A stretch of DNA of 64,000 bases, from positions 496,001 through 560,000 of the forward strand of contig JBMNHG010000008.1 in assembly GCA_050950285.1 (NCBI GenBank). Direction: 5' to 3'. Numbering within the stretch: the stretch's first letter is position 1; each line of letters opens with the position of its first letter. Under the pieces are notes generated by a model, which made no database searches, was not told the origin of the DNA, and saw nothing but the letters and a program-made list of their open reading frames with translations. The DNA is from Kiritimatiellia bacterium (GTDB taxonomy: Bacteria; Verrucomicrobiota; Kiritimatiellia; RFP12; JBMNHG01). Below, piece after piece: positions 20,504 to 54,881 of this stretch. A program made the translations under genes and the position numbers.

Positions 20504-20525
20504 CACGTCAACCACGGGAAACACG

Positions 20526-21614: not shown

Positions 21615-21705
21615 CGGCGCCTGCATGGCAATAGCTTCTGGCTGACCAGGCGCTGCACGTGTTGTAAAAAACAGGGATTCTCCAAATGCCGACGTGGCGC
21701 CGTCT

Positions 21706-22851: not shown

Positions 22852-22952
22852 CGTCCTTCAACTCATTGGGAATCAGAAAAACAAGAACAAGACCTCTTTT
22901 CGATAAAGTAGCAAAACGAGCCCAATTCCACAAGTGATATTCCGAAAAACGA

Positions 22953-23019
22953 AATGCGCAATATGTGCATTATTATGCGCACAATGAGCATGCCGCGAGG
23001 GGGCTCGGCATTGTATAAT
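22953..23019 (+). promoter_or_regulatory. Putative XylR-activated promoter with tandem operator
   Basis: Direct repeats AATGCGCAATATGTGCAT (22953) and TATGCGCACAATGAGCAT (22974), 21 bp apart, abut the -35 position of TATAAT (23014-23019). Confidence 0.55.
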
Positions 23020-23085
23020 GATTGATGCCGAGACGAAGCCGTGTGCTACAGGTGTGGCGCCCTTCGCATGGCAATAGGAGTCCCC

Positions 23086-24885: not shown

Positions 24886-24894
24886 AGCCATTCC

Positions 24895-27030
24895 ATGTCT
24901 TCTTGGCTCCCGAAAACATGCCCCACCACATCGGTGGTCTTTCTGGATATCGCCCTTGAGTCGGCGTCGCCCGGGGCGCTGTTCGCGCTTGCGACGCTTC
25001 AAGGGCTCGTCAATCGAACCCACGCGCGCAAGGTGTTCCTGAACCATCCGCTTCGCGACCCGTCCCATCCGGGCGTGATGCCGCTGGAGAAGTGGTTCGA
25101 GGACGGGCTGATTCCCTATCCCGTCGAGCATCCCGCGCTCGACGGCTCGAAGCGATACCCGGCATTGGACTGGCTGTTGCGAGAACATGGGAGTCTGCTT
25201 CATGGCGCGGTCCTCACACCGCCACGCATCCGCGAGCATGAGGGCAGCATCGCCGCCGCCACAACGGCCGCCGCGTTTGAGCATGCCATTGCATTGACGC
25301 CCGACATCGCGGCGCATCTGCATGATGAAGGTTGGACCTTTCCGGTTCTTGGCAGCACGATCGGCCTGGACAACCTCGCCGCGTTGCGCTGGCAAATCGC
25401 TCGCTATGCGGACGACTCGCGCCGCAACGGCCGCGTGATGGGGTTCACCCATGGCGGCCGGCCGTGCTGGATGATCGACTACTGGGTCGCCACCTATAGC
25501 TTTTGCTTCTATCTCGACGCCCGGCTGCCCGAGGAATCCGCCGCTTTCGCGGAGATTCTCAACCCGGATCTCATGCCCCCGGGCGCGATCCTCTATGGCG
25601 ATGTCGAGGGCACCGACGCCCGGTTCGTCGCCCAGCAGCTCGGCTACACGGTTTCGGCCGGCGACTTGTGCAACCTGTCCGTCACCTCGTCCATTCCGAG
25701 CGAACCCGCCCGTCTGCGTCGTCCACCCGCGCCTCGGGCCCACCCGGTCGAACCGGATTTTGCGTTTGTGGGCTGGAACGGTCTTGACGGAGACTGCCCC
25801 GTCGGCGTGGGCGCTTACGGCTACCTTGCGTTGCGCGAGGCGCCGCCGGAAGCCGACGCGCCGATCGGCCTGTGGTTTCACCCGCACATGATCGACTTGT
25901 TTCCAACCATGGCGCAGTGGTGGTCCGAACGCGGGAACGGCCAGCTTGACATTGTCGCTTCGCTCAACGACGGCGGTGTCGCACCCTGGACGGAGGAGGG
26001 CCGTCGCGGCTGGCGCGAAAGCTACCGCAGCCTGATGGCGCGATCAAATGGTCTCTTCCAGGTGTTCAACGTCTTCTACGAGACCGAGGACGTCGTGCAG
26101 GACACGTTGGCCGCTCCGCTTGACTGGCCTTTTGTGATTCTTGGCTACGACCCTGGACATTACCGCATCGAGAACGAGCCGACCCGGTGGAAGCTTCTGG
26201 GAAACACGGTTTACTGCAGCCAGGGCTGCGATGCGCGCGGCTCCAAAGGCGCCGACGCCATTCGTGCGCTCATCGATGCGCAACCGGCTGGCACGCCCGC
26301 TTTTGTGATGGCACGGCTTTGCGGTTCGGAGGGAAGGTTTCTGGAGACGGCCACCGCCGCGATGCGCGCGTTGCGAGCCGATCCGCCTGCCGGACGCCGT
26401 CTCGTCTTCCTGCCGCCGCGCGACCTCGCCGCGACGTGGCGCGCCTGGGCCGAAGCTTCTCGTCCTGTTGCTCCGCCATCGGTCTGGCCCGGCCCTGACG
26501 GCGCCCGCTTCGAGCAGACGCCGTTGCATCCCGACGCCATCCGAGGGCGGTTGCCGCATCCGCGTTCATTGGAGGCGGACGCCCATCGGAGGACGTTGCC
26601 GGCTGACATGGATGTGGCCGGCATCACCGCCGCCGTGGCCGCCGTGCCTGCCGAGGTTCCCGTTTGCTGGCTGCTCGGAACGGGCGTCGATGAACGGGCC
26701 GAGAGCAACGGCGCCTGGCTCTTTGATTATGCGAAACGGTTGATGCACCTGCACGTCTGCCAGAAAAACCGCCCCCACGCACGTGTGGCGGTTGCGCTTG
26801 AAGCGCACGCTTCCAAAGAGGCGGTTCTCCGGCGCTACCATCTGTTTCGCGCGCTCGAAGTCGCGGCCGTCGGCGCGGTCGATGCCTTCCATGTGCCGAT
26901 CCCCGAACGCGCCGTGCGGATCGTTGCCGAACTGCGTCAATTCCACAGTCTGCGACACGTGCCTGTACACGTGCCTGTGGTTTCCGCATCTGACGATGCG
27001 GACTTTGCCCCTTGCTCAACGCCTGCCTAG
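24895..27030 (+). CDS. GxGYxYP-like putative glycoside hydrolase
   Basis: LATLQGLVNR N-terminus, AATTAA, NLSVTS, DGD motif, followed by an unrecognised C-terminal extension. Confidence 0.6.
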   Translation: MSSWLPKTCPTTSVVFLDIALESASPGALFALATLQGLVNRTHARKVFLNHPLRDPSHPGVMPLEKWFEDGLIPYPVEHPALDGSKRYPALDWLLREHGSLLHGAVLTPPRIREHEGSIAAATTAAAFEHAIALTPDIAAHLHDEGWTFPVLGSTIGLDNLAALRWQIARYADDSRRNGRVMGFTHGGRPCWMIDYWVATYSFCFYLDARLPEESAAFAEILNPDLMPPGAILYGDVEGTDARFVAQQLGYTVSAGDLCNLSVTSSIPSEPARLRRPPAPRAHPVEPDFAFVGWNGLDGDCPVGVGAYGYLALREAPPEADAPIGLWFHPHMIDLFPTMAQWWSERGNGQLDIVASLNDGGVAPWTEEGRRGWRESYRSLMARSNGLFQVFNVFYETEDVVQDTLAAPLDWPFVILGYDPGHYRIENEPTRWKLLGNTVYCSQGCDARGSKGADAIRALIDAQPAGTPAFVMARLCGSEGRFLETATAAMRALRADPPAGRRLVFLPPRDLAATWRAWAEASRPVAPPSVWPGPDGARFEQTPLHPDAIRGRLPHPRSLEADAHRRTLPADMDVAGITAAVAAVPAEVPVCWLLGTGVDERAESNGAWLFDYAKRLMHLHVCQKNRPHARVAVALEAHASKEAVLRRYHLFRALEVAAVGAVDAFHVPIPERAVRIVAELRQFHSLRHVPVHVPVVSASDDADFAPCSTPA

Positions 27031-27040
27031 GAGTCATGCC

Positions 27041-30000
27041 ATGAAAAACAGATCCATGTTTCGTTTTGCCGCGATCATGTTGGCCGTCACCCGCCTTCAT
27101 GCCGGGCCAGCTCCAAAAGCCTTCCCAAACGGTACGAAGGCTGTAGCATCATTCGCCACGGATGGCGATCGAGGAAAGGTTGAAAATCTGATCGACGGCG
27201 ATTCCGCCACGTCGATGAGCGGAGCGGCCGCTTCTTGCAAGGGGCCAACCGATCCTGTCTGGATCGACTTTGCGTTTCCTCGACCCGTCGCCGACCTCGT
27301 CGGCGTCGAGACCGGCAAGTCGGATCCCTTCAAGAACTATTATCCGAAGCAAGCCCAGTTCTGGGTGGATACGGACGGCAACGGCACGTTCGACACGCTC
27401 GGAGCCTCTGTCAAGTTGGGCCCGTCGGACGAATCGGCGGGTCAACACTTGTTTGCCGGGCGCATCCCCAAGGCCCATGGGCTGCGCTTCCTGGTGACCG
27501 AACAGAACCAAGCGGGCCTGAACCGCTGCTTCATGATGAACGAGATGGGGCTGCTCGTCGATCCGGCGGCCGATCCCATGGCGACGACGCCGGACGCGAA
27601 GTCCGAGGATGCCATTCTGGCGTTGAAGGCGGCGAAGGAAGCGGCGGACAAAGCGGCTGCAGAAGCGCGCCGCCGCAACGCTCCGAAGCCGCACCAGTCC
27701 ATTGTGCCCGGCTCCGAGAAGCTCCCGGGCGTGATCCTGCCCTTGCCCTCGAACACGGTCGTCCGCTGTTCCATGGGAACGGAAAAGGACGGCGGCCCTT
27801 CGGCTCTTTTTGACGGCAATCCGGAAACCGTCCTTCGCGCCGTCAGCGGGAGCTGCGGTTCGCCTTTCAGCACGGCCTCGATCTTCCTGCGCTTCCCCGA
27901 ACCCGTCGCCGACATCGGCGGCGTCGAGACGGGCAACTCGGATCCCTTCCACAACTACTATCCGGTTGAGATGGAGTTCTGGGGCGATTCGGACGGCGAC
28001 GGACGTTGCGACACGTTGCTGGGCCGCACACGCAAGCTCGGGCCTGCCGCGCAATGTGTCGGGCGCCATCGTTTCGATGCTCGGCTGCCGCTGGCGCATG
28101 GATTGGAGATCCGCGCTGTCGAACAACATGTCGGCGGAGGCAGGCGCGCTTTTCAGATGGATGAAATGCGGCTCGTGCGCGATCCGGATCTGCCAATCGC
28201 GGAAGCCACTCCGCTGAGTTACCGCGATCTTTTCTACAAGAGCGCCATGCCTGCGGGGACGACGATCTCGGCCTCCTTTGCCACGGAAGACGGGGGCGGC
28301 CCCGAGGTGTTGCTCGACAGCGACCCGACGACGTTCATGAACGCGAAGCAGGGCACTGCGAAAGCCGGGGTCCCCGCATCGCTCTTCCTGCGGTTCGCGA
28401 AACCGGTCTCCGACCTTGCCGGCATCCAGCTTGGCAATTCCGACCCGTTCAAAAACTATGTGTGGAAAGAAATGCAGGTCTGGGCCGACACGACGGGAAA
28501 CGGCGTGTATGACACGTTGGCGGCAACGCTGGAGAGCGGAGCAGGCGAACGGCGTTTCCGGAAGCCTGTGACGAAGGCATACGGACTTGAGCTGCGCGTG
28601 ACGCAGCAGTCCTTGCAGGGCACCTATCGCTGTTTCATGCTCAATGAAATCGGGGGGCTGGTCTTCAAGGACAGTGCGGGCGAAACTGAAATGCGCTACG
28701 TGGTCGAGGACTTCGAAGACCTGAGCTCTTGGCGGACCTGGGCGAACAACACGGCCCAGCCAGAAGGAGAACGTTATTACGGCAAGTACACCTATCTCGT
28801 TGGCGACTACCGCCCGGAACTCGCGAAAAGCGGCGTTGGGGTGGGGCGTGTTCGATGCTGTTTCAAGAATGGACGCAGCAGCCTGTGGGCGACTCGCGGC
28901 CGTGTGGCGGCTGAAGAAGGGATTGTCGAAGGCATTCGCTTTTGGGGCAATCCGCAAGGCTACGAGTGCTCTGTCCATTTTGAGATGGTGGACGCCAAGG
29001 GTCGGCGATTTCATACCCCGAGCGTGAAGTTGACGGGCAATGCCTGGCAGGAGTACAGCATCGACACGAGCGCGAAATCGATTCCCGCCGTGTCCGAGAT
29101 GACGTACCCCTTCGTTCTCAAACACATCTTCCTCGACACGGACAAGGGAGGCATTGGCGATGTGCTGCTCGACAACATTGCGTTCGTCGGTGCCGTCGAC
29201 CGCGGCAAGCGCGTGCGGATCCGCCCCGTTTACACCGGCTTGGGGTACGACCCCGCCAAGCCGCTGAAGATCCAGTATCGTTTGTGGAACGCGCTTGGGC
29301 GCGACGTCGTGGCTCCCCTGGAGGCGAAGCTGTTCTCCAGCTTCGACCCGAAGCACACGGCCGTCGTGGCGCAGAAAACACAGGCGGTGGCGCTCGCCCC
29401 GTATTCGGACGCCGTTGTGACCGTTGACTTTGGCGCCGTTCCCGTGGGCCACTACGAGGCGCTCCTGAGCTTGGAGGCCGAAGGGGTCTCGGCTGAACTG
29501 CGCGACCCCGTCGCCGTTTTGACCTTGAATGGCGGACGCATCAACAAGAAGCCGATGTGGTTTGGTTCGCAGCATCCGGGAGACTGGCTCGCGGATGCCG
29601 AGAACCAGTTCGTCTTCAAGCACGTCGCCGTGCCGCTCGGGCTGGATTGCTATCGAACCGGGGCACCGGACAAGGACATCATCGAGGCGGGGATGTTTTG
29701 CGCCGCCATGTTCGGCGGCGTGCCCCCCGCGTTGCGGCCAGCCGACAGGAAAGGCGACGACCGCGTCGAACCGACGGACTACGCCGCCTATGCCGAGTGG
29801 TGCAAGCGACAGGCGCGCGAGAAGTACTTGCCCTACGCCGACAAGATTCTTTCGATCGAATATTACAACGAGCCCGATTTGCCGGATTTCTGCTACCTGC
29901 CCGAGATCGACACCTACCTCAAGATGCACCGCACGTTCGCCCAGGCTTTTCGCGAGGTGATTCCCGGCATCAAGATCGGCACCGGCGGCAATACGGTGCG

Positions 30001-31621
30001 GCATGGGAAGGAGAAGAAAGACTTCAACCCGCGCATGTACACCGAACTCGCCAAGGAGGCCGATGTGGCCATCTGGCATGCACATGGGCCGTTGGAGAAC
30101 TACATCGGGCTCCAGCGCCTGGTCGAGGACTGGCTGGAGAAGGGCGGCAGACCCGGGGAGCAGATGCTGCTGGGCAATTCCGAAGCCGGGATCCCCGGAG
30201 GCGAGTCGGCCGTCGGAAGCCTCAATCAGGCGGACAACCTCGTCAAGAAGATAGGCTGGGCCAAGTCTCAGAAAAACTCCTATTTCTATGTGTGGTTTAC
30301 AACCACCGATACGTATGACCCGCAAGGCGGATACCTGAACAACGAGAATTGGGGCTTGGTCACTTGCAACCAGCGCCTCAAACCCAGCGGCCAGGCTTAC
30401 AATGAATTGATCCGCAAGCTGGCGAACACGGAGGGGCTCGGCGAGGTTGATCTCGACGAACGTCTGCAGGCTTGCGCCTATCGTCGCGACGACGGGACGC
30501 AGGTGTGGTTGGTGTGGCCTCGTGAACGCGGAGCCGTGCTGTCGTTGCGGTTTGCCGCAAGCGGCCCCGTGGTTCTCACGGATCTCTTTGGCGCTTCCCG
30601 CACGGTTGCGCCCGAGAAGGGGATCTTGCGCTTTGAAGGCAAACGGCTGGCCCTTCTATGTCGAAGCGCCGAAGGAAGGTCTCGTTCGGAGCGGCGGCCA
30701 CCCCCGGAGTTTGTGAGTTATGCCTCGGTGCTGGGCGTGCCGCCGGGTGCCGAGATATCCGTGCCGGTAACGCTTCGAAATGTCTGGGGACGCGCCGGTG
30801 ACGCTGAAGACCCGCGGCGCGTGCGCCCGGATGGTGTGGTCTTTGCCGACGGTTCAAACGAAACTTCCCGCAAATGCCGTCGAGACCGTCAACCTGGGCT
30901 GGACGCTGTCGCCAGCGGCTTCATTTGGTTCGCAAGGATGCGCCCTCTCCTCGTCAGCTCGGACGATCCGGGCGGTGGACGAAGTGCTGCCGCTGACGCT
31001 GGTCGTAGCCGAAATGGCCGCAAAGGCCGGGCCGTTCGTCATCGACGGCGTGCCGGACAAACTCCCGAACGGACGCCCCCCTCGTTCTCGATCAGGAGCG
31101 GTTCGTGCGCGAACTTGTCTCCGATCCGGACACCCTCGGTGTCGGAAGGACGCGGCCGATCTTTCGGCCAGGGCAGCCTTCGCACACGATGGGAAGGGCG
31201 TCCTATCTCTGCATCGATGTTCAAGACCAAAGCCACAACCCGGGAGAGGCGAGCGCAAAGCTGTGGGCCAAGGATAGCATTCAAGTGGCTTTTATATGCA
31301 GGCGACGCGCACACGGAAATCGGATTGACGGAAGCAGAGGGCGGCTTTGGCTGGTGTTGGATTGCACCGGACGCGGCCTATGCAAACCGCAAGATGACGA
31401 CGCCGCTTGCGGTGAAACGCACAGGGAACCATACGATCTACGAGGCGTATCTGCCGTTTGATTTTCTGGGGATCAAAGCCTATGCTCCAATGTTGCCTCT
31501 GCGCCTCGCGTTTTTGGTGAACGAAGACGATGGCCGCGGCCGCGTTCGCATTCTGCACTGGTTTGACGGCATCGCGGCGGATAAGAGCTCCGATCTCTTT
31601 GGACATCTCGTTTTGGAGTAG
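27041..31621 (+). CDS. Large secreted GH39-like hydrolase with three repeated N-terminal modules and a C-terminal CBM9-like domain (contains locally frameshifted segment)
   Basis: Signal peptide; 3x SDPF.NY...W.D..G.G..DT; YYNEPD and NSEAG motifs; YEAYLPF...FLVNEDDGRGR. 30630-31300 reads sensibly only by switching frames. Confidence 0.75.
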   Translation: MKNRSMFRFAAIMLAVTRLHAGPAPKAFPNGTKAVASFATDGDRGKVENLIDGDSATSMSGAAASCKGPTDPVWIDFAFPRPVADLVGVETGKSDPFKNYYPKQAQFWVDTDGNGTFDTLGASVKLGPSDESAGQHLFAGRIPKAHGLRFLVTEQNQAGLNRCFMMNEMGLLVDPAADPMATTPDAKSEDAILALKAAKEAADKAAAEARRRNAPKPHQSIVPGSEKLPGVILPLPSNTVVRCSMGTEKDGGPSALFDGNPETVLRAVSGSCGSPFSTASIFLRFPEPVADIGGVETGNSDPFHNYYPVEMEFWGDSDGDGRCDTLLGRTRKLGPAAQCVGRHRFDARLPLAHGLEIRAVEQHVGGGRRAFQMDEMRLVRDPDLPIAEATPLSYRDLFYKSAMPAGTTISASFATEDGGGPEVLLDSDPTTFMNAKQGTAKAGVPASLFLRFAKPVSDLAGIQLGNSDPFKNYVWKEMQVWADTTGNGVYDTLAATLESGAGERRFRKPVTKAYGLELRVTQQSLQGTYRCFMLNEIGGLVFKDSAGETEMRYVVEDFEDLSSWRTWANNTAQPEGERYYGKYTYLVGDYRPELAKSGVGVGRVRCCFKNGRSSLWATRGRVAAEEGIVEGIRFWGNPQGYECSVHFEMVDAKGRRFHTPSVKLTGNAWQEYSIDTSAKSIPAVSEMTYPFVLKHIFLDTDKGGIGDVLLDNIAFVGAVDRGKRVRIRPVYTGLGYDPAKPLKIQYRLWNALGRDVVAPLEAKLFSSFDPKHTAVVAQKTQAVALAPYSDAVVTVDFGAVPVGHYEALLSLEAEGVSAELRDPVAVLTLNGGRINKKPMWFGSQHPGDWLADAENQFVFKHVAVPLGLDCYRTGAPDKDIIEAGMFCAAMFGGVPPALRPADRKGDDRVEPTDYAAYAEWCKRQAREKYLPYADKILSIEYYNEPDLPDFCYLPEIDTYLKMHRTFAQAFREVIPGIKIGTGGNTVRHGKEKKDFNPRMYTELAKEADVAIWHAHGPLENYIGLQRLVEDWLEKGGRPGEQMLLGNSEAGIPGGESAVGSLNQADNLVKKIGWAKSQKNSYFYVWFTTTDTYDPQGGYLNNENWGLVTCNQRLKPSGQAYNELIRKLANTEGLGEVDLDERLQACAYRRDDGTQVWLVWPRERGAVLSLRFAASGPVVLTDLFGASRTVAPEKGILRFEGKRLALLCRSAEGRSRSERRPPPEFVSYASVLGVPPGAEISVPVTLRNVWGRAGDAEDPRRVRPDGVVFADGSNETSRKCRRDRQPGLDAVASGFIWFARMRPLLVSSDDPGGGRSAAADAGRSRNGRKGRAVRHRRRAGQTPERTPPSFSIRSGSCANLSPIRTPSVSEGRGRSFGQGSLRTRWEGRPISASMFKTKATTRERRAQSCGPRIAFKWLLYAGDAHTEIGLTEAEGGFGWCWIAPDAAYANRKMTTPLAVKRTGNHTIYEAYLPFDFLGIKAYAPMLPLRLAFLVNEDDGRGRVRILHWFDGIAADKSSDLFGHLVLE

Positions 31622-44844: not shown

Positions 44845-44952
44845 TGGGCAACCATAGCAAACTGCGGCACGCCGCGCAATCCCGCCAGCGGTATTCGGTT
44901 GGCCTTCCTCGTGCCCCCTGTCGCCAACCGAACACCTCGCCGCCGCCCAGCG

Positions 44953-46008
44953 TCAGGAGCGTCGCCTTGTCTTCCGATGCGGACATTTGCCCCTCGCCCT
45001 GCGGTGAAGGATGAAAAGCACGGAAACCGCGGCAACCACTGCCAAGCCGCCGACGCCAACTATCCGGCGCCGCTCGGAACGGACTCGGGGAGCGGCTGCG
45101 TCCGGCTGGACGCCCCGTGGCGCAAAAATCACTTCCGGGCTGGGCGTGACGAGCTTGCCGCCCCACGTTCCGGCATCATCCGCCGCGCGTTCCCTGCTGA
45201 AATCGAGGGCCTGGAGCAGGGCGGCGTTGGTGTTCACGGATGTATGGTTCCTATACCTGCGGGACTCGGCGAGGGCGGCCTTGAGGTCGGCGTCCGTGTA
45301 CAGGTTCCTGGTCGGCGGCTCCAGGCTGTGATGCTCCAGCAAGGCCAGACGCTCTCCCGAACGCCGGTAGGTGTCGCTCCGCATGGCCAGGATGCGGTCA
45401 ACCTCGACAAAACCGATCTTCCCCTCCTCGCGGGCGGCGGCAACCATCAGCGCGGCAATGATGGCGCGGCGTTTGGCCTCATTCTCCGGCGGCGTTTGGT
45501 CATAAACTTCTGCGGCATGGGAATACACGGAAAGCGGGTCGATGCCGCAGCGATCTCCCGCCAGAAACTGGAGGAGCACGTCCCTCGCCTCTTCCGCGTC
45601 GGCGACGCGGAGGTAGGAGCCAATGGCGATCGTACGCAGGAATCCATCCTTGGATTTGTCGGCGGCCACCTCCAGCAGGAAATCCTTGACCGGGAACTCC
45701 TCGCACTTCGGGAGCCACCGAACAACGCCGATCTCAATCGCTTTGTAGTAACGCCACTCCTCCGTCTCGGAAGCAAGCTCGGACAACTTCATCTCGGCCT
45801 CGCGGAAAAGGCTCATCAATGATCGGTGAATCTGTTCATTCGTTATGGCTGAACGATCCACGAAGTCGTCGAATTCCTTCCAGGGATCTCCTTGATCCGC
45901 GTAAAAAAAAGCAATCAGGCGTTCTTTCAGCCAATCATCGCTCTTCTCTGCGAAAATTGACGCGGCCCCGAAAAGAAGAATGCTGCATAGTATGATCTGT
46001 GTTTTCAT
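44953..46008 (-). CDS. Exported helical protein with C-terminal membrane anchor (putative immunity protein)
   Basis: Signal peptide, C-terminal TM followed by basic tail; ATG overlaps the TAA of the HExxH fragment. Confidence 0.75.
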   Translation of the reverse strand: MKTQIILCSILLFGAASIFAEKSDDWLKERLIAFFYADQGDPWKEFDDFVDRSAITNEQIHRSLMSLFREAEMKLSELASETEEWRYYKAIEIGVVRWLPKCEEFPVKDFLLEVAADKSKDGFLRTIAIGSYLRVADAEEARDVLLQFLAGDRCGIDPLSVYSHAAEVYDQTPPENEAKRRAIIAALMVAAAREEGKIGFVEVDRILAMRSDTYRRSGERLALLEHHSLEPPTRNLYTDADLKAALAESRRYRNHTSVNTNAALLQALDFSRERAADDAGTWGGKLVTPSPEVIFAPRGVQPDAAAPRVRSERRRIVGVGGLAVVAAVSVLFILHRRARGKCPHRKTRRRS

Positions 46009-46425
46009 TAGTGTTCCGGCTCCCGCGTGCTCATCTGGTTCAGCCCTACGCTGATTGGAAGCCGGTTCGTGCCTCCCATGACGGAGAGAACGTCCAGAGG
46101 AAGATCCGCGCGTGGAATGGAAGCATGGGGAGCGTTCATGATGGCCCGATAGGTCAGGTCGCGGTAGGTGAGCGTCGGCGAGTGATACCCCGTTCCCTCG
46201 CCGCCGCTCCAGTTCAGGGGCATCACCTTGTCTTCCGAGACGAGGCCGTCTCCTGGGGGGAATTCATACAGGTCTACCAGTCCGCAGGCGTGGCCGAGTT
46301 CGTGCGCAAGCGTCGTCAGGGGAACATCGGCGCTCACCGCCATGCCCCGCCTCGGATCGTTTCCGAGCAGATTACGATCCGAATGCTTGCCGTTAGCCCC
46401 CACAATAGTGTCTACACAGTATAAT
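46008..46425 (-). pseudogene. Orphan C-terminal fragment with zinc-metalloprotease HExxH motif, truncated by IS
   Basis: LYCVDTIVGANG...TLAHELGHACGLVDLY. Upstream the frame runs into the IS end at 46426. Confidence 0.75.
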
Positions 46426-48139
46426 CCTAAAAAGAGCAGTTGGGTGTGCGGATTTTGAGCAAAGGCCTGTAAACACTGGCTTTCGTTGAGATTCGCGCCG
46501 CACCTATTTGGTGCAAAACGCAACGGTGCGCCCTATACTTCTGATTGAACCTAAAAAAAGGAGTACAGGATGAACGACACCGTTGCGTATGGGAATGATG
46601 GCACAGGGGCGCTTCTGGATCAAGCGGAGATCCGCAGGCTGCTGGTCCGCGGGGGCGGCGGATGCTTCGAAGTGGAGTGGGACGCCGACGCGAAAGTGAC
46701 GCCGACGGGCTCCGTCGTGTTCTTCGCCCAGTACCTTAAGACCGGCGGCCTGCCGGATCGTTTCTGCGACTCCTCGCCGCTGGAGTACAAGAGCAACAAT
46801 GCCCCCGCCGCGCGCGACGTGATGGGGACGCTGCTGCTTTCCGTCCTCAACGGGCAGACGCGTTACGCCCACATCAACGCGCTGCGTTCCGACCGCGTCG
46901 GGGCCGAGGTCCTGGGGCTTGGCAAGGTGGTGTCCGAAGACAGCGTCCGCAGGGCGCTGGGCCGCGGGACGGAAGAGGCCTGGGACACGTGGCTGGCGGG
47001 GCTGGAGCGGACGGTCGTCGAGCCGCTGCTCGCCGAGGCGTACGTCCTGGACATCGACAGCACGGTCAAGCCGCTCTACGGCCATCAGGAGGGCGCGGAG
47101 CTGGGTTACAACCCCAAGAAGCCGGGGCGGCCCAGCCACAACTGCCACACGTACTTCATCGGCGCGCTGCGCCTCGTGCTGGGCGTCGACGTGCAGCCCG
47201 GGAAGCAGCACTCGGGGGGTTGCGGCATGCCCGGCCTGTGGAAGCTCATCGACTCGCTGCCGCCCGGGTGCCGCCCGCGGCTGATACGCGGGGACGTGGG
47301 CTACGGCAGCGAGAAGGTCATGGCGCAGGCCGAGGCGCGCGGGCAGCCCTACCTGTTCAAGCTGAGGCGCTCGCCGAAGATCAAGTCGCGGCTCCGGGAG
47401 CTGGCGGCGCCCGGCCGGGCGTGGACCGACGCCGGCGAGGGCTGGCAGGCGTCCGAGAGCCGCCTGAAGCTGGCCGGCTGGACAGCCGAGCGACGGTGCG
47501 TGTTCCTGCGCCGCCCCGCGCGCGCGGAGCCGCCCCGCCCCTCCGGGCCGGAGTTCGGCTTCGTCCCGGAGGTCACGGACGCGCGGACATGGGACTATGC
47601 CGTGCTGGCGACCAACGACGGAACCCTGGACGCCGTGGCCCTGTCCCAGTTGTACAGGGACCGGGCGGACTGCGAGAACGTGTTCGACGAGATCAAGAAC
47701 CAGTGGGGCCGGGGCGGCTTCGTGACCCGCGACCTGCGGCGCTGCCGCATCATCGCCCGCATCATCGCCCTGGTCTACAACTGGTGGAACATCTTCACGC
47801 GCCTCGCCCGGCCCGACAGCCACATGGAGGCGGTCACATCCCGGCCCCTGCTGCTCCACGCGGTCGGCCGGCTGGTCACCACCGGCCGCCGGAAGATCGT
47901 GCGCCTGACCTCGACGCACGCCCTGGGCGGACAGGTCCGCCTCGTCCTGGACAGGATCGGCAGGTTCATGAACAACCTCGCGGCAATTGCGGAGCAGTTG
48001 AGCGCCGAGCAGGTCCGGGCGATCATTTTGTCGGCGGCGTTCGTCAAATGGCTGCGCGGAAGGGTGCTCCATCCAGTCTCAGAAGGCGACCAAATGCTGC
48101 TCCGGCTGATAACTTGAAAGTTCAACTGCTCTTTTTAGG
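46426..48139 (+). mobile_element. IS1380-family-like insertion sequence (copy 2, different from copy 1)
   Basis: Perfect 17-bp TIR CCTAAAAAGAGCAGTTG (46426-46442, 48123-48139); flanks differ, so no target duplication. Confidence 0.88.
46570..48117 (+). CDS. IS1380-like DDE transposase
   Basis: VLDIDSTVKPLYGHQEGAELGYNP, RGDVGYG, YRDRADCENVFDEIKNQWG; AAGGAG RBS. Confidence 0.9.
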   Translation: MNDTVAYGNDGTGALLDQAEIRRLLVRGGGGCFEVEWDADAKVTPTGSVVFFAQYLKTGGLPDRFCDSSPLEYKSNNAPAARDVMGTLLLSVLNGQTRYAHINALRSDRVGAEVLGLGKVVSEDSVRRALGRGTEEAWDTWLAGLERTVVEPLLAEAYVLDIDSTVKPLYGHQEGAELGYNPKKPGRPSHNCHTYFIGALRLVLGVDVQPGKQHSGGCGMPGLWKLIDSLPPGCRPRLIRGDVGYGSEKVMAQAEARGQPYLFKLRRSPKIKSRLRELAAPGRAWTDAGEGWQASESRLKLAGWTAERRCVFLRRPARAEPPRPSGPEFGFVPEVTDARTWDYAVLATNDGTLDAVALSQLYRDRADCENVFDEIKNQWGRGGFVTRDLRRCRIIARIIALVYNWWNIFTRLARPDSHMEAVTSRPLLLHAVGRLVTTGRRKIVRLTSTHALGGQVRLVLDRIGRFMNNLAAIAEQLSAEQVRAIILSAAFVKWLRGRVLHPVSEGDQMLLRLIT

Positions 48140-48203
48140 TTAGGTCATCTTATGCGGATCGTGCGCCGCAACCGCATGGCAAAGCTCATGGAGGTAACTT
48201 TGC

Positions 48204-49352
48204 TCATTGAACCTTCGTGGCCGGCAAGGCCATGCGTACCGCCCGCGTGTCCTGATCCAAGAACTGACCGCTCTTCACCTCGCTATAGGCCTGCCATGCC
48301 CGCGCATCCAAGTTGTGGTCTTTGGGGTCTTTGTCTTTTCGCTGATCCCATGCATACAAGAAGGCATCTTTCCCTGAAACATGATTGTTGCTGCTGATGT
48401 TGACCTTGATGCCGAGCTTTTCATGCAAACTCCGCATTTTCTCCCGTTCCTTTAGTTGATCGTTGGTATAAGCTATCTTTTCTGGAAAACATCCAACAAC
48501 CTTTCTGAATGCAAGCAACGCCAGTGCATTGTATACATTCTGCAACTCCAATCCGTTGACGATCCGCTCGTATCGTCTGGCATCCCACGAGTTGACAAGC
48601 GTCAGGGGTTCCGTCCCCGGCTCGTCGCGCTCGAAGAAGTCGAGATTGGCCTTGAGCGCCGGAGTCTCGACAAAGCCACGTCCCGGCGCCTGCCCCTCGG
48701 GCCGGGTTCTGCCGGATCGCTTCTCCCGCATCAGGAAACCGCCGGAGCCCCATGTCTTCTCCAGGTCCGCTTGCGTGCCGTCGACCGCGAAAAGGTTCGT
48801 TCCCGCCTCGTCGTTCAACGTCAGCGCCCTTGCCTCGACGCCCATCCACGCCGGGGTCATGCGCGCGGCCAGCTTCCCGCACCCGGCAAGCGGGAAGTCC
48901 AGGGACGCGGCAAGCCGCGCCAGACCGACGGCGGCGAGATCGAGGCAGCGCTGGGCGAGGAAAAGGTTGCCGTATCCCGGAGTCGAGGCGCACCAGTCGG
49001 ACAAGTCGCAAAGCAGGAGCGCCTGCCGGTGCAGTTCATCGCCTGGCGGCAGCTCTTGAAGCACGGTGGCAACGGCTTCCAGTTGCACGGCCATTTCCCG
49101 CCCGAACTCCCTGGCGGCAAGATCAACCCTTGTCTGCTCGTCCGATCCCGGACGATGCCCGACACTCCACCTCGAAGGCATGCGCGGCGCCTGCCACCGG
49201 TGTTCGCGCGCGGCAACCAGCAGGCCGGAAAGCCCGTCCTTTTGCAGGGCGGCATCCAATTCGCGAACGCGATCCATTCCGGTCGGTTCTTGTGCATGGG
49301 CCAAAGAACAAAGAGTGGCAAGAAGGATAATGCTGACGATCAACTTGTTCAT
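48204..49352 (-). CDS. Exported hypothetical protein, putative immunity paralogue 2
   Basis: 382 aa, signal peptide ending AHA-QEP; paralogue of 49438-50589. Confidence 0.85.
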   Translation of the reverse strand: MNKLIVSIILLATLCSLAHAQEPTGMDRVRELDAALQKDGLSGLLVAAREHRWQAPRMPSRWSVGHRPGSDEQTRVDLAAREFGREMAVQLEAVATVLQELPPGDELHRQALLLCDLSDWCASTPGYGNLFLAQRCLDLAAVGLARLAASLDFPLAGCGKLAARMTPAWMGVEARALTLNDEAGTNLFAVDGTQADLEKTWGSGGFLMREKRSGRTRPEGQAPGRGFVETPALKANLDFFERDEPGTEPLTLVNSWDARRYERIVNGLELQNVYNALALLAFRKVVGCFPEKIAYTNDQLKEREKMRSLHEKLGIKVNISSNNHVSGKDAFLYAWDQRKDKDPKDHNLDARAWQAYSEVKSGQFLDQDTRAVRMALPATKVQ

Positions 49353-49437
49353 GGTAACCTGACGTAAAGAAAATTAGGTCAGCTTATGCGGATCGTGTGC
49401 CGCAACCGCATGGCAAAGCTCATGGCGGTAACTTAGC

Positions 49438-50589
49438 TCATTGAACCTTCGTGGCCGGCAAGGCCATGCGTACCGCCCGCGTGTCCTGATCCAAGAACTG
49501 ACCGCTCTTCACCTCGCTATAGGCCTGCCATGCCGAGGAATAAAGGGTGTGCATCTGTGGGGTTCTGGCAGGCCGCTGACCCCAAGCTTGAGCAAAAGCC
49601 GCCTCACCTAGACTGCTATAGCCATCCTCGAACTTGACGACCTTGATCCCTCTTTTTGCGTATTCTGCGATGTCCTTGTCGCGTTGCTGTAGCTGCGCCT
49701 CGGTGAGTTCTGGCTTCTCGGGAAAACGTCCGACAACAGATCGGAACTTCAGGAGTGCCAGAGCCTTGTTTACATTCTGCAACTCCAATCCGTTGACGAT
49801 CCGCTCGTATCGTCTGGCATCCCATGAGTTGACAAGCGTCAGGGGTTCCGTGCCCGGCTCGTCGCGCTCGAAGAAGTCGAGATTGGCCTTGAGCGCCGGA
49901 GTCTCGATAAAGCCACGTCCCGGCGCCTGCCCTTCGGGCCGGGTTCTGCCGGATCGCTTCTCCCGCATCAGGAAGCCGCCGGAGCCCCATGTCTTCTCCA
50001 GATCCGCTTGCGTGCCGCCGACCGCGAAAAGGTCTGCTCCCGCCTCGCCGTTCAACGTCAGCGCCCTTGCCTCGACGCCCATCCACGCCGGGGTCATGCG
50101 CGCGGCCAGCTTACCGCACCCGGCAAGCGGGAAGTCCAGGGACGCGGCAAGCCGCGCCAGACCGACGGCGGCGAGATCGAGGCAGCGCTGGGCGAGGAAG
50201 AGGTTGCCGTGCCCCGGAGTCGAGGCGCACCAGTCGGACAAGTCGCAAAGCAGGAGCGCCTGCCGGTGCAGTTCATCGCCTGGCGGCAGCTCTTGAAGCA
50301 GGGTGGCAACGGCTTCCAGTCGCACGGCCATTTCCCGCCCGAACTCCCTGGCGGCAAGATCAACCCTTGTCTGCTCGTCCGATCCCGGACGATGCCCGAC
50401 GCTCCACCTGGACGGCATGCGCGGCGCCTGCCACCGGTGTTCGCGCGCGGCAACCAGCAGGCCGGGAAGCCCGCCCTTTTGCAGGGCACCATCCAATCCG
50501 CGAACGAGATCCATTCCGGACGGTTCTTGTGCATGGGTCAAAGAACAGAGACAGGCAAGAAGGGCAATGCTGACAATTAGCCTTTTCAT
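49438..50589 (-). CDS. Exported hypothetical protein, putative immunity paralogue 1
   Basis: 383 aa, signal peptide ending THA-QEP; ATGA overlap with the stop of the large upstream gene. Confidence 0.85.
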   Translation of the reverse strand: MKRLIVSIALLACLCSLTHAQEPSGMDLVRGLDGALQKGGLPGLLVAAREHRWQAPRMPSRWSVGHRPGSDEQTRVDLAAREFGREMAVRLEAVATLLQELPPGDELHRQALLLCDLSDWCASTPGHGNLFLAQRCLDLAAVGLARLAASLDFPLAGCGKLAARMTPAWMGVEARALTLNGEAGADLFAVGGTQADLEKTWGSGGFLMREKRSGRTRPEGQAPGRGFIETPALKANLDFFERDEPGTEPLTLVNSWDARRYERIVNGLELQNVNKALALLKFRSVVGRFPEKPELTEAQLQQRDKDIAEYAKRGIKVVKFEDGYSSLGEAAFAQAWGQRPARTPQMHTLYSSAWQAYSEVKSGQFLDQDTRAVRMALPATKVQ

Positions 50590-53500
50590 GGCAACTCCGT
50601 GTAAAGCTTGTTAAACTCGATGCGATCTATGAAGATTTTGCCGCGATTGCGCGAAGGCCCATACGAGCCGTTGCCGTAGCCGATCTGCAAGATCGCGGCA
50701 TCCTGAGAGTGGCCGCCAGCATCGTGGTTGAAGTCGTAGAGGTCGGTCACTTCTCCGATTGTTTCCACACTCGTTACTACCAAGCCGCCGGGCTGCTTCA
50801 CGACATGGTATCGTGCCTGATGGTAGGGAATCCTGCCTCGGCCAATAGTTCCGTTCACATCGTCAATGAGATTGTACAACCAGGTGTCAAATGTTACCGT
50901 GTATGGCGTGACCCACGACGGGCTTTCGCTTGTGTGCGCAACATCGAAGAATGTGGTAGCCGAAGGGAAGTCGGCTTCTGATCCAATCGGCAAACCGGCA
51001 AAGTAGTTCGTAACGATTGGTGAGACCGTGCTGTTATAGAAGGCTGTGAGTACGTTTTCGACTTGCGGGGCTGTAGCGACAAGATCAGCCAGAGACGTAT
51101 CCTTGTTCCATGTGTATTCAGTCAGCGTGGCATTCCCGCCATCATCGAACGAAGCCCCCGAATTGTGCGTAAGCCACTCGGCGAAGCAGCCGGCAAACGC
51201 ATTGAAGCTCACGTTTGTGGAACTGGTCGGCTGCTTGTCGGCCGGCACCCCTACCGCGTTTCCATCGCGGAATATCTGGAGAAGGCGCTTGGCATGCGGA
51301 AGAACCAGGCTTGTCGCCCAGCCGGGTGATGTCCAGTCGCCATCTATAATGGCATCTATACTTCCCTTCGCGGATGCGTACCGGTTTACGCTGCTTCCCC
51401 TAACCATCGGATCGCCGATAACTTCATCGGTTGTCGTGTTCTTCACGACACAGGGCAACAGCAAGTCCCCGCCGTCAAGCCCACCGCTGTTGTTCCAGTC
51501 AAAGCCGACCCTGATGGTGAAGTCCTCGACTCCCGGCGATGCCCCGGGATGCCGGAAGTTCAGCCCGCACTCGCCATTGGCGTCAAACGGGATTTTCCCG
51601 CTCCCCAGGATGATCTCGCCGCCCACATACCCGGCAGCATAGAACCGCGTGCGCAAGCCCGCCGGTTGAATGTCCGCCTTTATAGTCGCATAGTATATGT
51701 CGGTATCCCCCGGGGGAACCATGTAAACATAGTTTCGCGGCACGCCATAGGTGTCACCGTTGGAATCCGGGTCGGGATTGCCATAGGTGGGGTCATCTTT
51801 ACGCGCCGGATTGAAAATCTGGTTGGCCTTGTTGTTTGTCTCCCACATTTTTATGAATGTTGCACTGATGACATACAGCGTCGCCTCGTCCGCGAGGTCG
51901 GGGAAGGTCCTGGACTGCACCGTCAGGGAGTGCGCGCCGGCGGCGAGGTTGCTGACGGACACCGGCCAGGGCGGCTGGCCGTCGGCGATGGGAGTGCCGT
52001 CGAGGCTGAGCGTGTAGCCTTCGGGGTCGTGGCTGGAGGGCGCGAGGTTGACGGTGATCCCGGCGGTGCTCCCGCAGGCGGTGTAGTAGGCGTTCGTCGC
52101 CAGTCTGGCGACGATGGCCTCGACGAGGAGGTTGGTCGAGAGGCGGACCCTTTGCGCGGGATCGAGCAGCTTGTAGCCCAGCTCGTAATCACCGCCAACC
52201 TGGGCGCTTAGCCAGAAGTCGCGGCTGGCCGCGACCGAGGCGGGGGGCGTGTTCGTGAGGGCCGACCGTGCGGCGGCCCAGGGCGCGCCCTCGACAACGC
52301 TGAAGCGCAGCCCCGCGGAGGCGGCGAGCCGCAGGCTTCCCTCCGCCAGCGCCGACTCGGTGAGGACCCGCCACGCGCGAGACGCAGCCGGTGCCGCCGC
52401 GGATGCGGCAGTGCCCGCCGGCAGTGCCCGCCGCGTCGAGGCCGATGGCGGCCACCGTCCAGGACGAGGTGGCCGTGTGCGACGGATGCAGCTCGTGGCT
52501 GGCGACGACTTGGGCGTCGCCGAACGCCGTGCTGGGAACCAGCCCCCCGGCCGTCAGCGGGGCCGGGCCGGCGAAGCGGTCGCCGGCCGCGACCGGGGCG
52601 CCGTCGCGCCGCACATCGAGGCGCGCCGAGATCCGGCGGACCACGTTGGTCTTCTTCTCCGCCCACCAGCCGCCCAGCGCCATGTGCCCGGGACAGGCGC
52701 AGCAGCGCGCGTGGTGGATGTGGCGCATGCAACCGTCATTTTCGGAGCCAAGCATGAAGCCGGCTTCGCCACCCGGCGCCAGCATCCCGCCGCCGCCCAG
52801 CGTCAGGCAGGCGCAGACGCATTTCCACTCGCCGTGAAGCGAACACCACTCCTCCGGACTTCCGCCCGTGCAGATGCCGCACTCGCGCGCCGGCCGGCCA
52901 TGGTCGCAATAGAAGCGGTGGCACTGCTCGACCATCGCGGACGTCCCGCACCCGACCCCGTTCCCGTCGTCGGGCAGGAACCGCACCGTGAGCCGGCCGG
53001 GCAGGATCCACGATGGCGATATCACGGGGCTTCTGCCGCCATAGATGGCGCCGTTGATCCACTCCCAGTTGTAGGTTCCCGGAAGGCCGTCCGTGACGCT
53101 GGCCACGATCGGCTGATGCGCATCGTGCAGGCAGACGATCCCGCCGGAACCGACGGTGACGGCCGGCAACACCAGGGTCGCCGCGCCCGCGCCCTTCCCG
53201 CCGGGCGCCAGGCCGCCGGTGCGGCCGGCCAGGACGATGCAGCCGGTCGAGGCGGCCGACACCGAGACGCCGGGGGCGTTGCCGAGCGCGAGGGGGATGG
53301 ACGAGCCGTCGGGCAGGTCGAGGCTGAACTCTTCCCGTCCCTCCAGCAGGAGGGGACGGCCGCCAAGCGCCAGCACCGTGCCGGGGCCGGGCGTGCCGGC
53401 GACGGTGAAGACGACGGTGCGGAAGCCGTCGGCCAGGAGTCGTGCCACGTCGCCGGGGACCGCGTCGCTGGTCCCATGGAGCAGTTCCTGCCAGAGGGGG

Positions 53501-54681
53501 CAGCCGTCGCCGTCGGCGTCGGCGTCGGGATCGTTCCAGGCAAACGGCTCCGGGTCGATGCCGTCCGGCAGCCCGTCGCCGTCGGCGTCGGGGTTGCGCG
53601 GGCCGGTTCCGAGGGCCAGTTCGTCCGGGTCCGCGAGGCCGTCGAGGTCGGTGTCGGGCAGGCGGGGGTCGGTGCCGTGGACCATCACCTCGTCGCAGGT
53701 GGAGAGTCCGTCGCCGTCGTGGTCGGCGATGTCCGGGTCGAGCATGCCGAAGGCGCGCCAGTGGAGTTCGAGGCCGTGGACGAGGACGCCCGTGCCGCCG
53801 AAGGCGAAGGTCTCGCCGCCGCCGCCGTTCTGGGCGCCGACGACCCAGTTGGCGGCGGGCGGCGCGTTGGTGGCGGACAGCCGGGACAGGTCGTAGCGGT
53901 AGACGAAGTCGCCGGAGGGGAAGAGTTCGGCCTGGAAGGTGACGGGGAGGCCGGCGTCGCGGCCGGCGAAGACGTCCTGCCAGGCGAGCAGCAGGCTGTT
54001 GGAGGCGGTCGGGGCGTGCCAGAAGCGTCCGGCCGGCGGGACGATGCCGAGGGAGGTCTGCAGGGGGGCGAGGAAGTCGAGGCCCGAGCCGTCGGGCATC
54101 CGGCGGGCACGGGGCGAGCCCTTGGGCCAACCGAAGGAGAGCGTGCCGCTGCTGGAGACGTGCAGCCCCCCGACGCGGTTGGTGCCGAGGGTGAAGGACC
54201 AGTTGGTGGCGGGGAGCCAGAAGGTGTCCTCGGCCACCCCGTAGCGGGTCCAGGGGGCGTGGACGACGGCGTTCGACGGGACGGAGGCCAGGGCGGGAGA
54301 CGGATTGGTGGCGACGCGCGCGAGCGCGAAGCCGGCCCGGTACTGGCCGGCGGTCAGGCGGGGGCCGGAGGAGGGGCCGCGCGCGGGCCGCGCCGGGAGG
54401 CCGCCGGAGACCATGCCCGCCGGGGGAGGGCCGGAAGACGGGGCGTTGCTTCCGGGCGGCACCTTCGGGACGCCGTGCAGGGTGGCGACCGCCAGGAGGG
54501 CGGAGAGCGCCGCCCTGACGGAGGGCGAAAGCGAGCGGAACCGGTCGCCGAGAGCGCGGAAGAGGCGGCGCAGGCCGGGCGACGTCCCGGCCCAGGCGCC
54601 GAGGCAGAAGAGCAGCGGCACGCCGGCCAGCAGGCAGGCGCCCGCGAACATCCAATGGTGCATCGACTGCAGGAGTCCCAT
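50586..54681 (-). pseudogene. Large membrane-anchored/secreted protein with TSP3-like repeats and variable C-terminal domain (putative polymorphic toxin), frameshifted
   Basis: Deleting one copy of the 13-bp tandem repeat at 52407-52432 joins ORFs 52189-54681 and 50586-51962 into one 1360-aa frame. Confidence 0.8.
52407..52432. repeat. Perfect 13-bp tandem duplication GGCAGTGCCCGCC x2
   Basis: Read directly: 52407-52419 and 52420-52432. Confidence 0.95.
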
Positions 54682-54881
54682 GGCTCTACCGCAGAAGGAT
54701 CACGGCGCCGCGACAAGACAGGCGGCGATGGCCCGGAGAAAAACGGCGCGCCGCCGGAACCGCGGCCCAAGGGAGGAAATGCAACCTGCATCCATGGTGG
54801 GGAGCGTAGCACGGGGCAACGGCGGCGGCAACCCTTATTCGTCCAACAATACAGGTCCAACCATGCAGGGTATGGCGCGGT

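Follow-up and report, generated by a model that had tools for sequence, protein, structure and literature searches.

Organization of the locus

The Kiritimatiellia, a little-studied group of bacteria, live in digesters, rumen and sediments. The stretch of 64,000 nucleotides analyzed here (the window; contig JBMNHG010000008.1, positions 496,001 to 560,000) likely comes from a Kiritimatiellia digester bacterium, and the metagenomic runs in which the locus was found come from digesters, bioreactors, landfill and wastewater; no RNA run was listed among them. A first-pass annotation had described five co-oriented minus-strand units, all of which we found again at 44953..54681 (Table 1). The overlap at the carrier stop that couples the carrier to the next ORF, the tandem relationship of the second exported-type protein to the first, and the orphan HExxH C-terminus TAATG-coupled to a different ORF beyond the IS element were all seen as well. 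The partner proteins had been called exported; we retain the word for N-termini that look signal-peptide-like by eye and by hydropathy alone, without a signal-peptide predictor. A scan of the locus for promoters and terminators gave results at chance level.

Relative to two intact paralogues, the window carries a single additional base near 52367–52369, which splits the carrier between two frames. The base is absent from all contigs spanning the site in 4 of 4 independent runs, and an assembly error is the probable cause of the frameshift near 52368.

Table 1. Features of the locus in window coordinates
Feature	Position	Strand	Details
Remnant of upstream exported-protein gene	54682..54839	-	~544 bp deleted at 6-nt microhomology
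Carrier (predicted toxin) gene, ~1360 aa	50586..54681	-	start 54681, end 50586; two frames here
First N-terminal hydrophobic segment, aa 11-29	54595..54651	-	hydropathy 2.11
Lineage-restricted N-terminal domain, aa 100-313	53743..54384	-	no known family
TSP3-like DxDxDG repeats	53503..53724	-	four motifs at aa 320-393
Rhs-free stalk with Cys/His-rich segment (aa 541-700)	51870..53496	-	99% identical in two paralogues
Tip part 1, predicted Ig-like (IPT/TIG-type) domain	51387..51872	-	begins at switch point ~51870
Tip part 2, predicted colicin M-fold domain, 266 aa	50586..51386	-	DLYDFN at 50744-50727
Cognate partner, 383 aa, likely immunity protein	49438..50589	-	signal-peptide-like N-terminus; overlaps carrier stop as ATGA
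Tandem partner paralogue, 382 aa	48204..49352	-	84% identical to 383-aa partner
IS1380-type element	46426..48139	+	transposase 46570-48117; 17-bp terminal repeats; no target-site duplication
Orphan C-terminal 138 aa of metzincin-like tip, HELGHACGLVD	46008..46425	-	cut by IS
HExxH-tip partner, 351 aa	44953..46008	-	signal-like N-terminal segment; C-terminal transmembrane helix, basic tail

A lineage-restricted N-terminal module and its upstream gene

In the family alignment the first hydrophobic segment is followed by a basic linker and a second hydrophobic stretch that runs to near a conserved Lys (aa 73). Two such segments had been annotated; in this copy only the first passes our hydropathy cut-off (1.6 over 19 residues), and the second is clear by eye in homologues, where it terminates in a conserved GG[ST]K. 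The domain that follows has no match in Pfam or NCBIfam. Within one order, 169 of 319 genomes carry it, and a sample of 401 genomes of the phylum gave 15 matches, all in the same order and none outside it. A PDB sequence-profile search with the N-terminal alignment found matches at the TSP3 repeats only. A guess that the domain is NIDO-like was not supported on checking. The TSP3-like repeats themselves stand as annotated, and the TSP3_bac model scores on other members of the carrier family.

The first ~400 aa of the carrier occur in 16 near-identical copies in the genome. Out of about 16–17 copies of the module, 13 head Rhs proteins or N-terminal parts of them, often with orphan arrays, and three, this carrier included, head an Rhs-free stalk. 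Near-identity between the carrier and the Rhs paralogues stops at ~53497, after the TSP3-like repeats. YD repeats and the Rhs core are present on the four Rhs paralogues scanned and absent from the Rhs-free carrier. The first-pass annotation recognized no Rhs, FHA, VgrG, PAAR, LXG or MafB motif and proposed that the carrier might be a different delivery class. In agreement with the first part, scans of the window pieces and of both intact paralogues gave no score for an Rhs, FHA, VgrG, PAAR, LXG or DUF1020 family. Because the same N-terminal module also heads 13 Rhs proteins, the carrier is better described as belonging, although Rhs-free, to a family that delivers Rhs proteins as well.

Where intact, as at C2:213195, the upstream exported-protein gene encodes ~190–210 aa. 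We examined 29 loci of relatives with the N-terminal domain; 19 have at least 700 bp of upstream sequence, and 16 of these 19 carry the gene intact. The gene has no match in Pfam or NCBIfam, and its ESM Atlas matches are Kiritimatiellota clusters. Neither VgrG (TIGR03361) nor Hcp (PF05638) was found in the genome, which is 99.35% complete, and the carriers show no PAAR and no Pfam match to the haemagglutination-activity domain or FHA repeats. The single TpsB match of the genome lies on contig C11 beside another large gene, and the Rhs core has 57 matches.

Two exchange points and the tip repertoire

The Cys/His-rich segment annotated in the stalk contains 13 Cys and 7 His residues. The stalk (aa 410–930) is rare, occurring in 2 of 401 genomes of the class, its own genome counted, and is common to 15 of 124 proteins examined. 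An Ig-like stalk had been proposed; the part for which an Ig-like fold is predicted here is the first ~163 aa of the tip. The three Rhs-free carriers end in three unrelated tips joined at one shared switch junction (window ~51870, ~aa 935). Comparison of the copies in this genome reveals two kinds of exchange: behind the TSP3-like repeats a copy continues into either an Rhs body or a short stalk, and at ~aa 935 one tip replaces another. An orphan cassette at C2:813955–814209 carries ~85 aa of the tip junction.

Variable C-termini, the prediction made for homologues of the carrier, extend across the family: 68 family proteins and 6 reference tips, some of the proteins partial, fell into 32 C-terminal clusters. 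These include PAD (PF03068, E 1e-25 to 1e-34), Rhs and HExxH tips, and the HELGHACG domain does terminate other carriers of the family, as had been asked of it. One family tip matches an alpha/beta hydrolase with an E value of 8e-5, below the cut-off. The tip at C2:801552 gave an Ntox44-like match with an E value of 0.57, a lead only, and papain-like and caspase-like labels were given to other tips by eye alone.

A predicted colicin M fold in the tip

Structure searches with the whole 428-aa tip returned just Ig-like folds (part 1: Z 7.8, rmsd 2.5, 90 residues aligned), and therefore we folded the last 266 aa alone. The resulting AlphaFold model has a pLDDT of 94.9 and is predicted to adopt the colicin M fold. 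Foldseek ranks 1–11 are all colicin M family or BtpeA (best E 2.1e-3). The top 5 of 48,161 entries in VIA belong to the same group (Z 4.9–5.7, rmsd 4.1–5.6, 144–166 residues aligned), and the next row has a Z of 3.0. Each of these scores is weak alone, all VIA Z values being under 8, and a third comparison, in which this group again ranks first, is a re-alignment of Foldseek's matches and so not independent. The fold gives some substance to the earlier proposal of envelope-acting effectors, since a colicin M fold looks envelope-acting.

Within the tip family the DxYD motif is nearly invariant (D377 95/95, Y379 94/95, D380 95/95), and profile comparison places DLYDFN in register with the DKYDFN of colicin M over 129 colinear columns. 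The hhalign probability against the colicin M profile is 11%, as compared to 0.2–2.2% for four controls and 1.7% for a single colicin M sequence. Colicin M catalysis requires an HR pair (PMC8469651), and no counterpart in register was found in the tip family alignment or the profile comparison. PF14859 does not score on the tip, Pfam and NCBIfam give it no name, the PDB sequence-profile search with the tip family found nothing, and the ESM Atlas gave no usable match. The family comprises 195 clusters at 50% identity. Among 150 listed matches, all 135 that reach the end of the tip lie within 30 aa of the protein C-terminus, behind varied N-termini. The genome also encodes a MurG homologue (233 bits, just under the cut-off).

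Partner families and the orphan module

The partner family of the colicin M-like tip lies downstream in 22 of 25 other loci, adjacent in 21 and ~0.6 kb off in L062. The three remaining loci comprise a fragment (L059), a locus with a different gene (L060), and one with at best a remote homologue (L065). Sequence identity between tips rises with that between their partners (rho 0.79, n = 20), a value inflated by kinship. The tandem partners in the window are near-identical except for a variable segment at about aa 290–350. Sequence searches of Pfam, NCBIfam and the PDB gave no match to the partner families. The gene neighborhoods suggest that the 383-aa protein is likely the immunity protein of the tip.

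The IS element carries a transposase matching DDE_Tnp_1_4 (E 4e-21), the Pfam family that we take to be IS1380. The junction between orphan and IS was recovered in 3 of 4 runs, with 30 letters inside the IS; no IS-free allele was seen in the 4 runs, and the missing part of the HExxH gene was not found elsewhere in the genome. The orphan piece is probably a dead remnant, and in the window it has no recombination junction because the IS cut it off. Its match to the M6 metalloprotease model (E 5e-4) is far below the cut-off and related family models score weakly, and the PDB sequence-profile search with its family found nothing. The metzincin zinc pattern is HExxHxxGxx(H/D) with a downstream Met; in all 15 sequences compared, the residues H, E, G, H, G and D do not vary, nor does an M that comes after them. 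The family of its 351-aa partner is next to the tip in 15 of 30 loci by BLAST and in 22 of 30 with a profile built from those 15, its own locus counted. There were no cross-hits in either direction between the colicin M-like and HExxH tip and partner families. A separate downstream exported-type protein accompanies each tip family, which is the co-variation with the next gene that the first-pass annotation had anticipated, and tips also occur on unrelated N-termini.

Discussion

Switching tips, cognate downstream genes and an orphan cassette with its junction are the layout of toxin, immunity and orphan module that had been proposed, and we are fairly confident from gene content and arrangement that this is an antibacterial polymorphic toxin-immunity locus. 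The genetic elements of the definition in PMC4436062 are present: one N-terminal region with distinct C-termini, a tip-specific downstream gene, and orphan modules with a junction. The locus is likely an undescribed, lineage-specific antibacterial weapon, because it combines a constant front, a swapped tail, a predicted colicin M fold and adjacent likely antidote genes. The best overall explanation, which we think probable, is a toxin-immunity locus with a swappable tip of colicin M fold acting on lipid II or a similar lipid; the modeled fold makes a lipid II-type substrate a reasonable, mildly favored choice. Once in the periplasm of a neighbor, the tip would split lipid II or a related undecaprenyl-pyrophosphate sugar. 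A divalent cation at the pyrophosphate would be bound by the aspartate of DxYD, and the role of colicin M's HR may be taken over by Arg, Gln and His residues conserved elsewhere. The 383-aa partner would neutralize the tip outside the cytoplasm, and the tandem paralogue and the HExxH-tip partner may guard against the variants of rivals. Counterpoints to this explanation include that PAD, peptidase and hydrolase tips could be ordinary secreted enzymes and that this copy has no intact upstream gene.

Delivery is sketched more tentatively, as one possible route. The carrier would enter the Sec route via its hydrophobic N-terminus and then be displayed or released, possibly through a secretin system aided by the upstream exported protein, as proposed for MafA/MafB; for this copy the helper would come in trans.

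The tip could share no more than its fold with colicin M and act on another lipid head group, bind lipid II without hydrolysis, or damage the membrane. The modest fold match, the absence of HR in register, the additional conserved motifs (EWLTH, GRGR, AAxQxG, R408) and the ability of catalytically dead pectocin M1 to lyse cells (PMC5821083) are in keeping with such a toxin, but the only invariant residues of the tip family are in DxYD, aligned with the catalytic DKYD, and we consider this unlikely. More improbable is that the carriers are enzymes displayed on the surface to serve the cell itself, whether for remodelling the envelope, releasing nutrients or recognizing kin, and that each is paired with a dedicated exported inhibitor or chaperone. 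Peptidase, hydrolase and deiminase tips, large partners, TSP3 and Ig-like parts typical of adhesins, and weak matches to CglD and MtsD models could be read this way. Against this, the N-terminus is shared with Rhs proteins that have orphan arrays, the genome is rich in Rhs cores, the tandem partners differ in one variable segment, and partners are retained after tip truncation, which fits conflict and not housekeeping. We give very little weight to effectors against eukaryotic predators or hosts, like the APD effectors of Amoebophilus, in which case the downstream genes would encode secretion chaperones. A eukaryotic target is conceivable for PAD and hydrolase tips, and PMC3482391 (section 37) describes effectors of this sort with lineage-specific prodomains, but the target of the colicin M fold is a lipid of bacteria, the strict pairing of tip and partner and the orphan cassettes fit bacteria that protect themselves against one another, and the metagenomes with the locus are from digesters and similar sites.

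Among known systems, MafA/MafB/MafI of Neisseria and the toxins with lineage-specific N-terminal domains in PMC3482391 (MAFB-N, Microscilla-N, APD1/2) share a constant lineage-restricted N-terminal domain, a variable tip, a cognate downstream gene, orphan cassettes, an upstream exported partner and the absence of a T6SS or T5SS signature. Because the layout parallels MafAB, a kind described in PMC3482391, the locus is a variant and not a new category. It differs in that the DUF1020 of MafB has no Pfam match on the carriers, the upstream gene is of a family unrelated to MafA with no conserved lipobox Cys by eye, and the partners are large and exported-type, with tips that, where examined, look envelope-acting. 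Two hydrophobic segments, TSP3-like repeats, a Cys/His stalk and a module heading Rhs bodies characterize the carrier family here and not Maf. Rhs/WapA proteins (PF05593, TIGR03696) are related through the shared module, which leads into Rhs bodies in this genome, and WapA is likewise thought to be Sec-exported (PMC4436062), but this carrier has a ~430-aa tip on a stalk without YD repeats or Rhs core.

Members of the colicin M family (PF14859: ColM, PaeM, syringacin M, pectocins M1 and M2) share the predicted fold and DxYDFN in register. The tip differs in falling below the family thresholds by sequence, lacking HR, having large insertions and being fused to Ig, TSP3 and other carriers. The ColM immunity proteins known to date associate with the membrane, and those of Cmi type, at 110–230 aa, are far smaller than the 350–380-aa partners here (PMC5821083, with sizes from its Table 1). 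Remote colicin M-fold effector tips with an immunity gene are also found in BtpeA CTD-BtpiA, according to the title of the PDB entry (9jdi, a Bacteroides fragilis T6SS effector and the longest alignment to the tip: 166 residues, Z 5.5), and in T6EC1/DUF3289 (PMC11148199). Both are T6SS cargo, in contrast to a genome where VgrG and Hcp were not found; DUF3289 and DUF943 do not score here. The Cystatin-like-domain and broken-hairpin systems with a colicin M-like tip in PMC12419801 also pair novel carriers and exchangeable lipid-targeting tips with periplasmic immunity, but have a lipobox, a Cystatin-like domain and BamE-like immunity, and the readable supplements do not mention Kiritimatiell-, Lentisphaer- or Colicin. 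In the literature searched, which reached few subscription journals, we found nothing on polymorphic toxins of Kiritimatiellia or on this family, work on Rhs toxins from another lineage only, and no paper on BtpeA.

A bolder joint reading, which we think rather unlikely as a whole, is that the upstream exported protein, the membrane hairpin and the 200-aa N-terminal domain together make up a delivery pathway of their own, so far undescribed, in one uncultured order, over half of whose genomes would use it. Rhs shells as well as bare envelope enzymes would travel by it with no T6SS, T5SS or T7SS involved, and two nested swap points would generate its diversity. The tip would then be a new catalytic subclass (DxYD with distal Arg, Gln and His), and the ~380-aa protein that blocks it would have a new immunity fold, soluble and periplasmic.

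The N-terminal domain and the partner gene are markers that pick out hundreds of such systems, and the locus is a case of Rhs and non-Rhs toxins built on a common N-terminal module where the genome has no detectable T6SS. The conserved residues of this remote colicin M-like family differ from the canonical motif and bear on the catalytic mechanism of colicin M. The tip family may provide new candidate lipid II-targeting antibacterials together with a putative immunity family.

The carrier family in the genome

The window is C8:496001–560000 of the genome G000 (4.05 Mb, 12 contigs, 99.35% complete). Housekeeping genes lie on both sides of the locus, and all five minus-strand units of the first-pass annotation are present as described. 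Homologues with names are labeled mostly Kiritimatiellia. At least half of the words of the locus are present in 13 runs, among 24 runs listed; all 13 are metagenomes, from bioreactors, digesters, landfill or unspecified sources.

The first ~400 aa of the carrier, the large predicted toxin, occur in G000 as 16 near-identical copies (mostly 89–100%; two broken) and one distant copy. In 13 of the 17 copies an Rhs body, or the N-terminal part of one, comes next, and in three the stalk found in the window; the distant copy matches neither the Rhs nor the stalk query at the threshold used. Rhs identity was confirmed by PF05593 on four paralogues and TIGR03696 on one, and G000 has 57 Rhs-core matches genome-wide. 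Several of its carriers are frameshifted in this assembly.

The three stalk carriers share 99% identity to window position ~51870 and then diverge abruptly: their tips are unrelated, and so are the ORFs behind each tip, which have signal-like N-termini. An orphan piece on contig C2 retains ~85 aa of this junction; the final 23 residues of the window's tip and another paralogue of the partner, the third, come next. The distant carrier on contig C6 ends in a tip of the same family (33%) followed by three tandem partner paralogues. Outside G000 the N-terminal domain or stalk was found in 68 of 124 proteins examined; the last 220 aa of these 68, some of them partial, fell with six reference tips into 32 clusters. 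The variable C-termini proposed in the first-pass annotation are thus observed, as three tips at one junction and as 32 C-terminal clusters, and the modular genetics are shown, as are the pairing of tip and partner and the range. Tips with names are PAD, alpha/beta hydrolase (below cut-off) and Rhs; the majority are unnamed. Searched without the TSP3 repeats, the N-terminal domain (aa 100–313) occurs in 169 of 319 genomes of the order, and all 15 matches in a phylum sample of 401 genomes lie within that order.

Compared with the intact paralogues C2:801552 (1266 aa) and C2:806453 (1192 aa), the carrier has one additional base. It is absent from the single contig spanning this position in 4 of 4 runs, with the caveat that assembled contigs can drop variants. 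In run X1 the depth is 93 on the base-free contig versus 35.5 on the tip-specific contig (2.6x), consistent with three collapsed copies, none with the extra base. The database protein P0002, whose source may be the same sample or a related one, matches both carrier pieces without a change of frame (99% over 769 aa, 100% over 456 aa). An assembly error is therefore the probable cause of the frame break, unless it is a feature of one strain.

Coordinates of features in the window (positions alone) and elsewhere
Feature	Location	Remark
Additional base	near 52367–52369	in carrier
Partner gene of the HExxH orphan	44953–46008	351 aa
Repeat at end of that gene	44935–44977	43 nt, 81% identical to 46196–46238 in orphan tip; possibly relic of another tip copy
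Strain-variable segment of orphan tip	46110–46133	eight clustered substitutions in 5/6 runs, absent in one
rpoB/rpoC-like genes	71–8161	window start; by eye
Lower-GC block	17516–31621	large unannotated ORFs, probably carbohydrate-related; by eye
Other IS copies	C2:682702, C3:242279, C12:5078 (G000)	in or beside Rhs arrays
Sister tips on C2	L021:5355–6350, L021:10256–11029	one weakly Ntox44-like (E 0.57); the other with His...NCTDY pattern, papain-like by eye
PAD tip (PF03068, protein-arginine deiminase)	L035:8822–12751 (genome G022); also proteins P0172, P0192, P0221	unusual; ends family carriers; G022 carrier followed by own exported-type partner
Second set of large TSP3-bearing carriers	C3:739014, C8:658100, C3:668731, C11:262626, C3:220095 (G000)	different N-terminal region; located via protein P0153, which also ends in the HExxH tip
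Stand-alone 546-aa gene	L027:4977–6617	two HExxH-tip partner domains, no tip beside
Secretin gene	C6:59239	~3 kb upstream of distant carrier C6:56017, same strand; may be chance

The tip and its partner

The 428-aa tip has relatives in 195 clusters at 50% identity. Among the 150 listed, the match extends to the tip's end in 135, and every one of these sits no more than 30 aa from the C-terminus of its protein; just four of the 150 contain the carrier's N-terminal domain or stalk. In the 36 scanned, the N-termini carry domains of TSP3, Ig, RCC1, lamin-tail or cadherin-like type. The whole-tip model (pLDDT 94.5) is Ig-like over its first 163 aa. A likeness of DLYDFN to colicin M was spotted before folding, and the last 266 aa, then folded alone (pLDDT 94.9), have a predicted colicin M fold. 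Foldseek ranks 1–11 are PaeM, pectocins, colicin M, syringacin M and BtpeA (best E 2.1e-3). An unbiased VIA search placed the same five proteins at the top of 48,161 (Z 5.7, 5.5, 5.1, 5.0 and 4.9; rmsd 4.1–5.6, 144–166 aligned; next row Z 3.0), a range in which, by the tool's warning, matches may be common, so that what counts is how coherent the top group is, together with the motif.

When the tip profile was compared with one of 53 colicin M homologues, 129 colinear columns placed DLYDFN on DKYDFN with a probability of 11%, against 0.2–2.2% in four control alignments. Across 95 aligned tip-family sequences D377 and D380 are invariant, Y379 is present in 94, H236, D338, R345, R347, Q396 and R408 are also conserved, and the HR pair of colicin M is missing. 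Colicin M requires D226, Y228, D229, H235 and R236 (PMC8469651), and motif degeneracy is documented (PMC5821083). The domain is therefore outside PF14859 yet likely works like colicin M; we infer its toxicity and substrate.

A genome scan yielded 25 tip loci; in 21 the title is informative and points to Kiritimatiellia, Lentisphaeria or Verrucomicrobia. The partner family lies downstream in 22 of the 25, and in 20 chosen full-length pairs, among which kin are not independent, the pairwise identities of tips and partners are correlated (rho 0.79; 0/2000 permutations), bearing out the suggested co-variation of the tip with the next gene. The three G000 partner paralogues are 75–100% identical block by block except at about aa 290–350 (34–62%), the pattern that would be expected of immunity variants. 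The family has no match in Pfam, NCBIfam or PDB.

The orphan HExxH tip

Nineteen longer proteins (38–70% identity) end in a domain whose final 138 aa correspond to the orphan fragment; this domain occurs in 80 of 319 genomes of the order. Four of the 19 (1010–1112 aa) share N-terminal regions with the window carrier (E 1e-31 to 1e-62), so carrier homologues do end in the HELGHACG domain, a possibility raised at first pass. Among the 30 best loci, its own included, the second partner family comes after the HExxH tip in 15 when sought by BLAST and in 22 when sought with a profile. Where tip identity is at least 38% (15 loci besides its own), it is present in 14, and the remaining contig stops short. 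Neither partner family was found behind the other's tip among the tip loci compared both ways.

The IS beside the orphan is without the 5-bp target duplication present at the three other two-ended copies, which suggests that a deletion or rearrangement took away the front of the gene. Because of this putative loss, the orphan is probably a dead tip with a retained putative immunity gene rather than a ready cassette.

Upstream gene and proposed export

A conserved upstream gene encodes a ~190–210-aa protein with a signal-like N-terminus and stops a few bases before the carrier start; it is present in 16 of the 19 loci with enough flank, out of 29 examined, and Kiritimatiellota is the commonest source of its clusters. 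Beside the G000 copies it is intact in five cases, broken in one and reduced by an identical ~544-bp deletion in 11, the window included. VgrG and Hcp gave no match in this nearly complete genome, which holds 13 Rhs carriers or fragments headed by the shared N-terminal module (L023–L026, L028–L034); it has six secretins, and its single TpsB match has its own neighbour gene. Given these results, the carrier may be exported by Sec first and then possibly by a secretin system; the upstream protein would serve as anchor or chaperone.

Relation to known systems

Remote colicin M-fold tips are already known on other carriers (PMC11148199, PMC12419801 and, by its entry title, PDB 9jdi), so the idea of such a tip on a novel carrier is not new. 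The literature searched gave no description of the carrier module, its partner gene, the tip family or either putative immunity family, and the locus did not fall into the Rhs, CdiA, T6SS-effector or MafB families. An upstream exported partner followed by a toxin is the layout described for MafA/MafB, with further cases expected (PMC3482391). By the definition in PMC4436062, the locus shows all those features of a polymorphic toxin system that can be tested from sequence, with MafAB closest in layout and colicin M closest to the predicted action of the tip.
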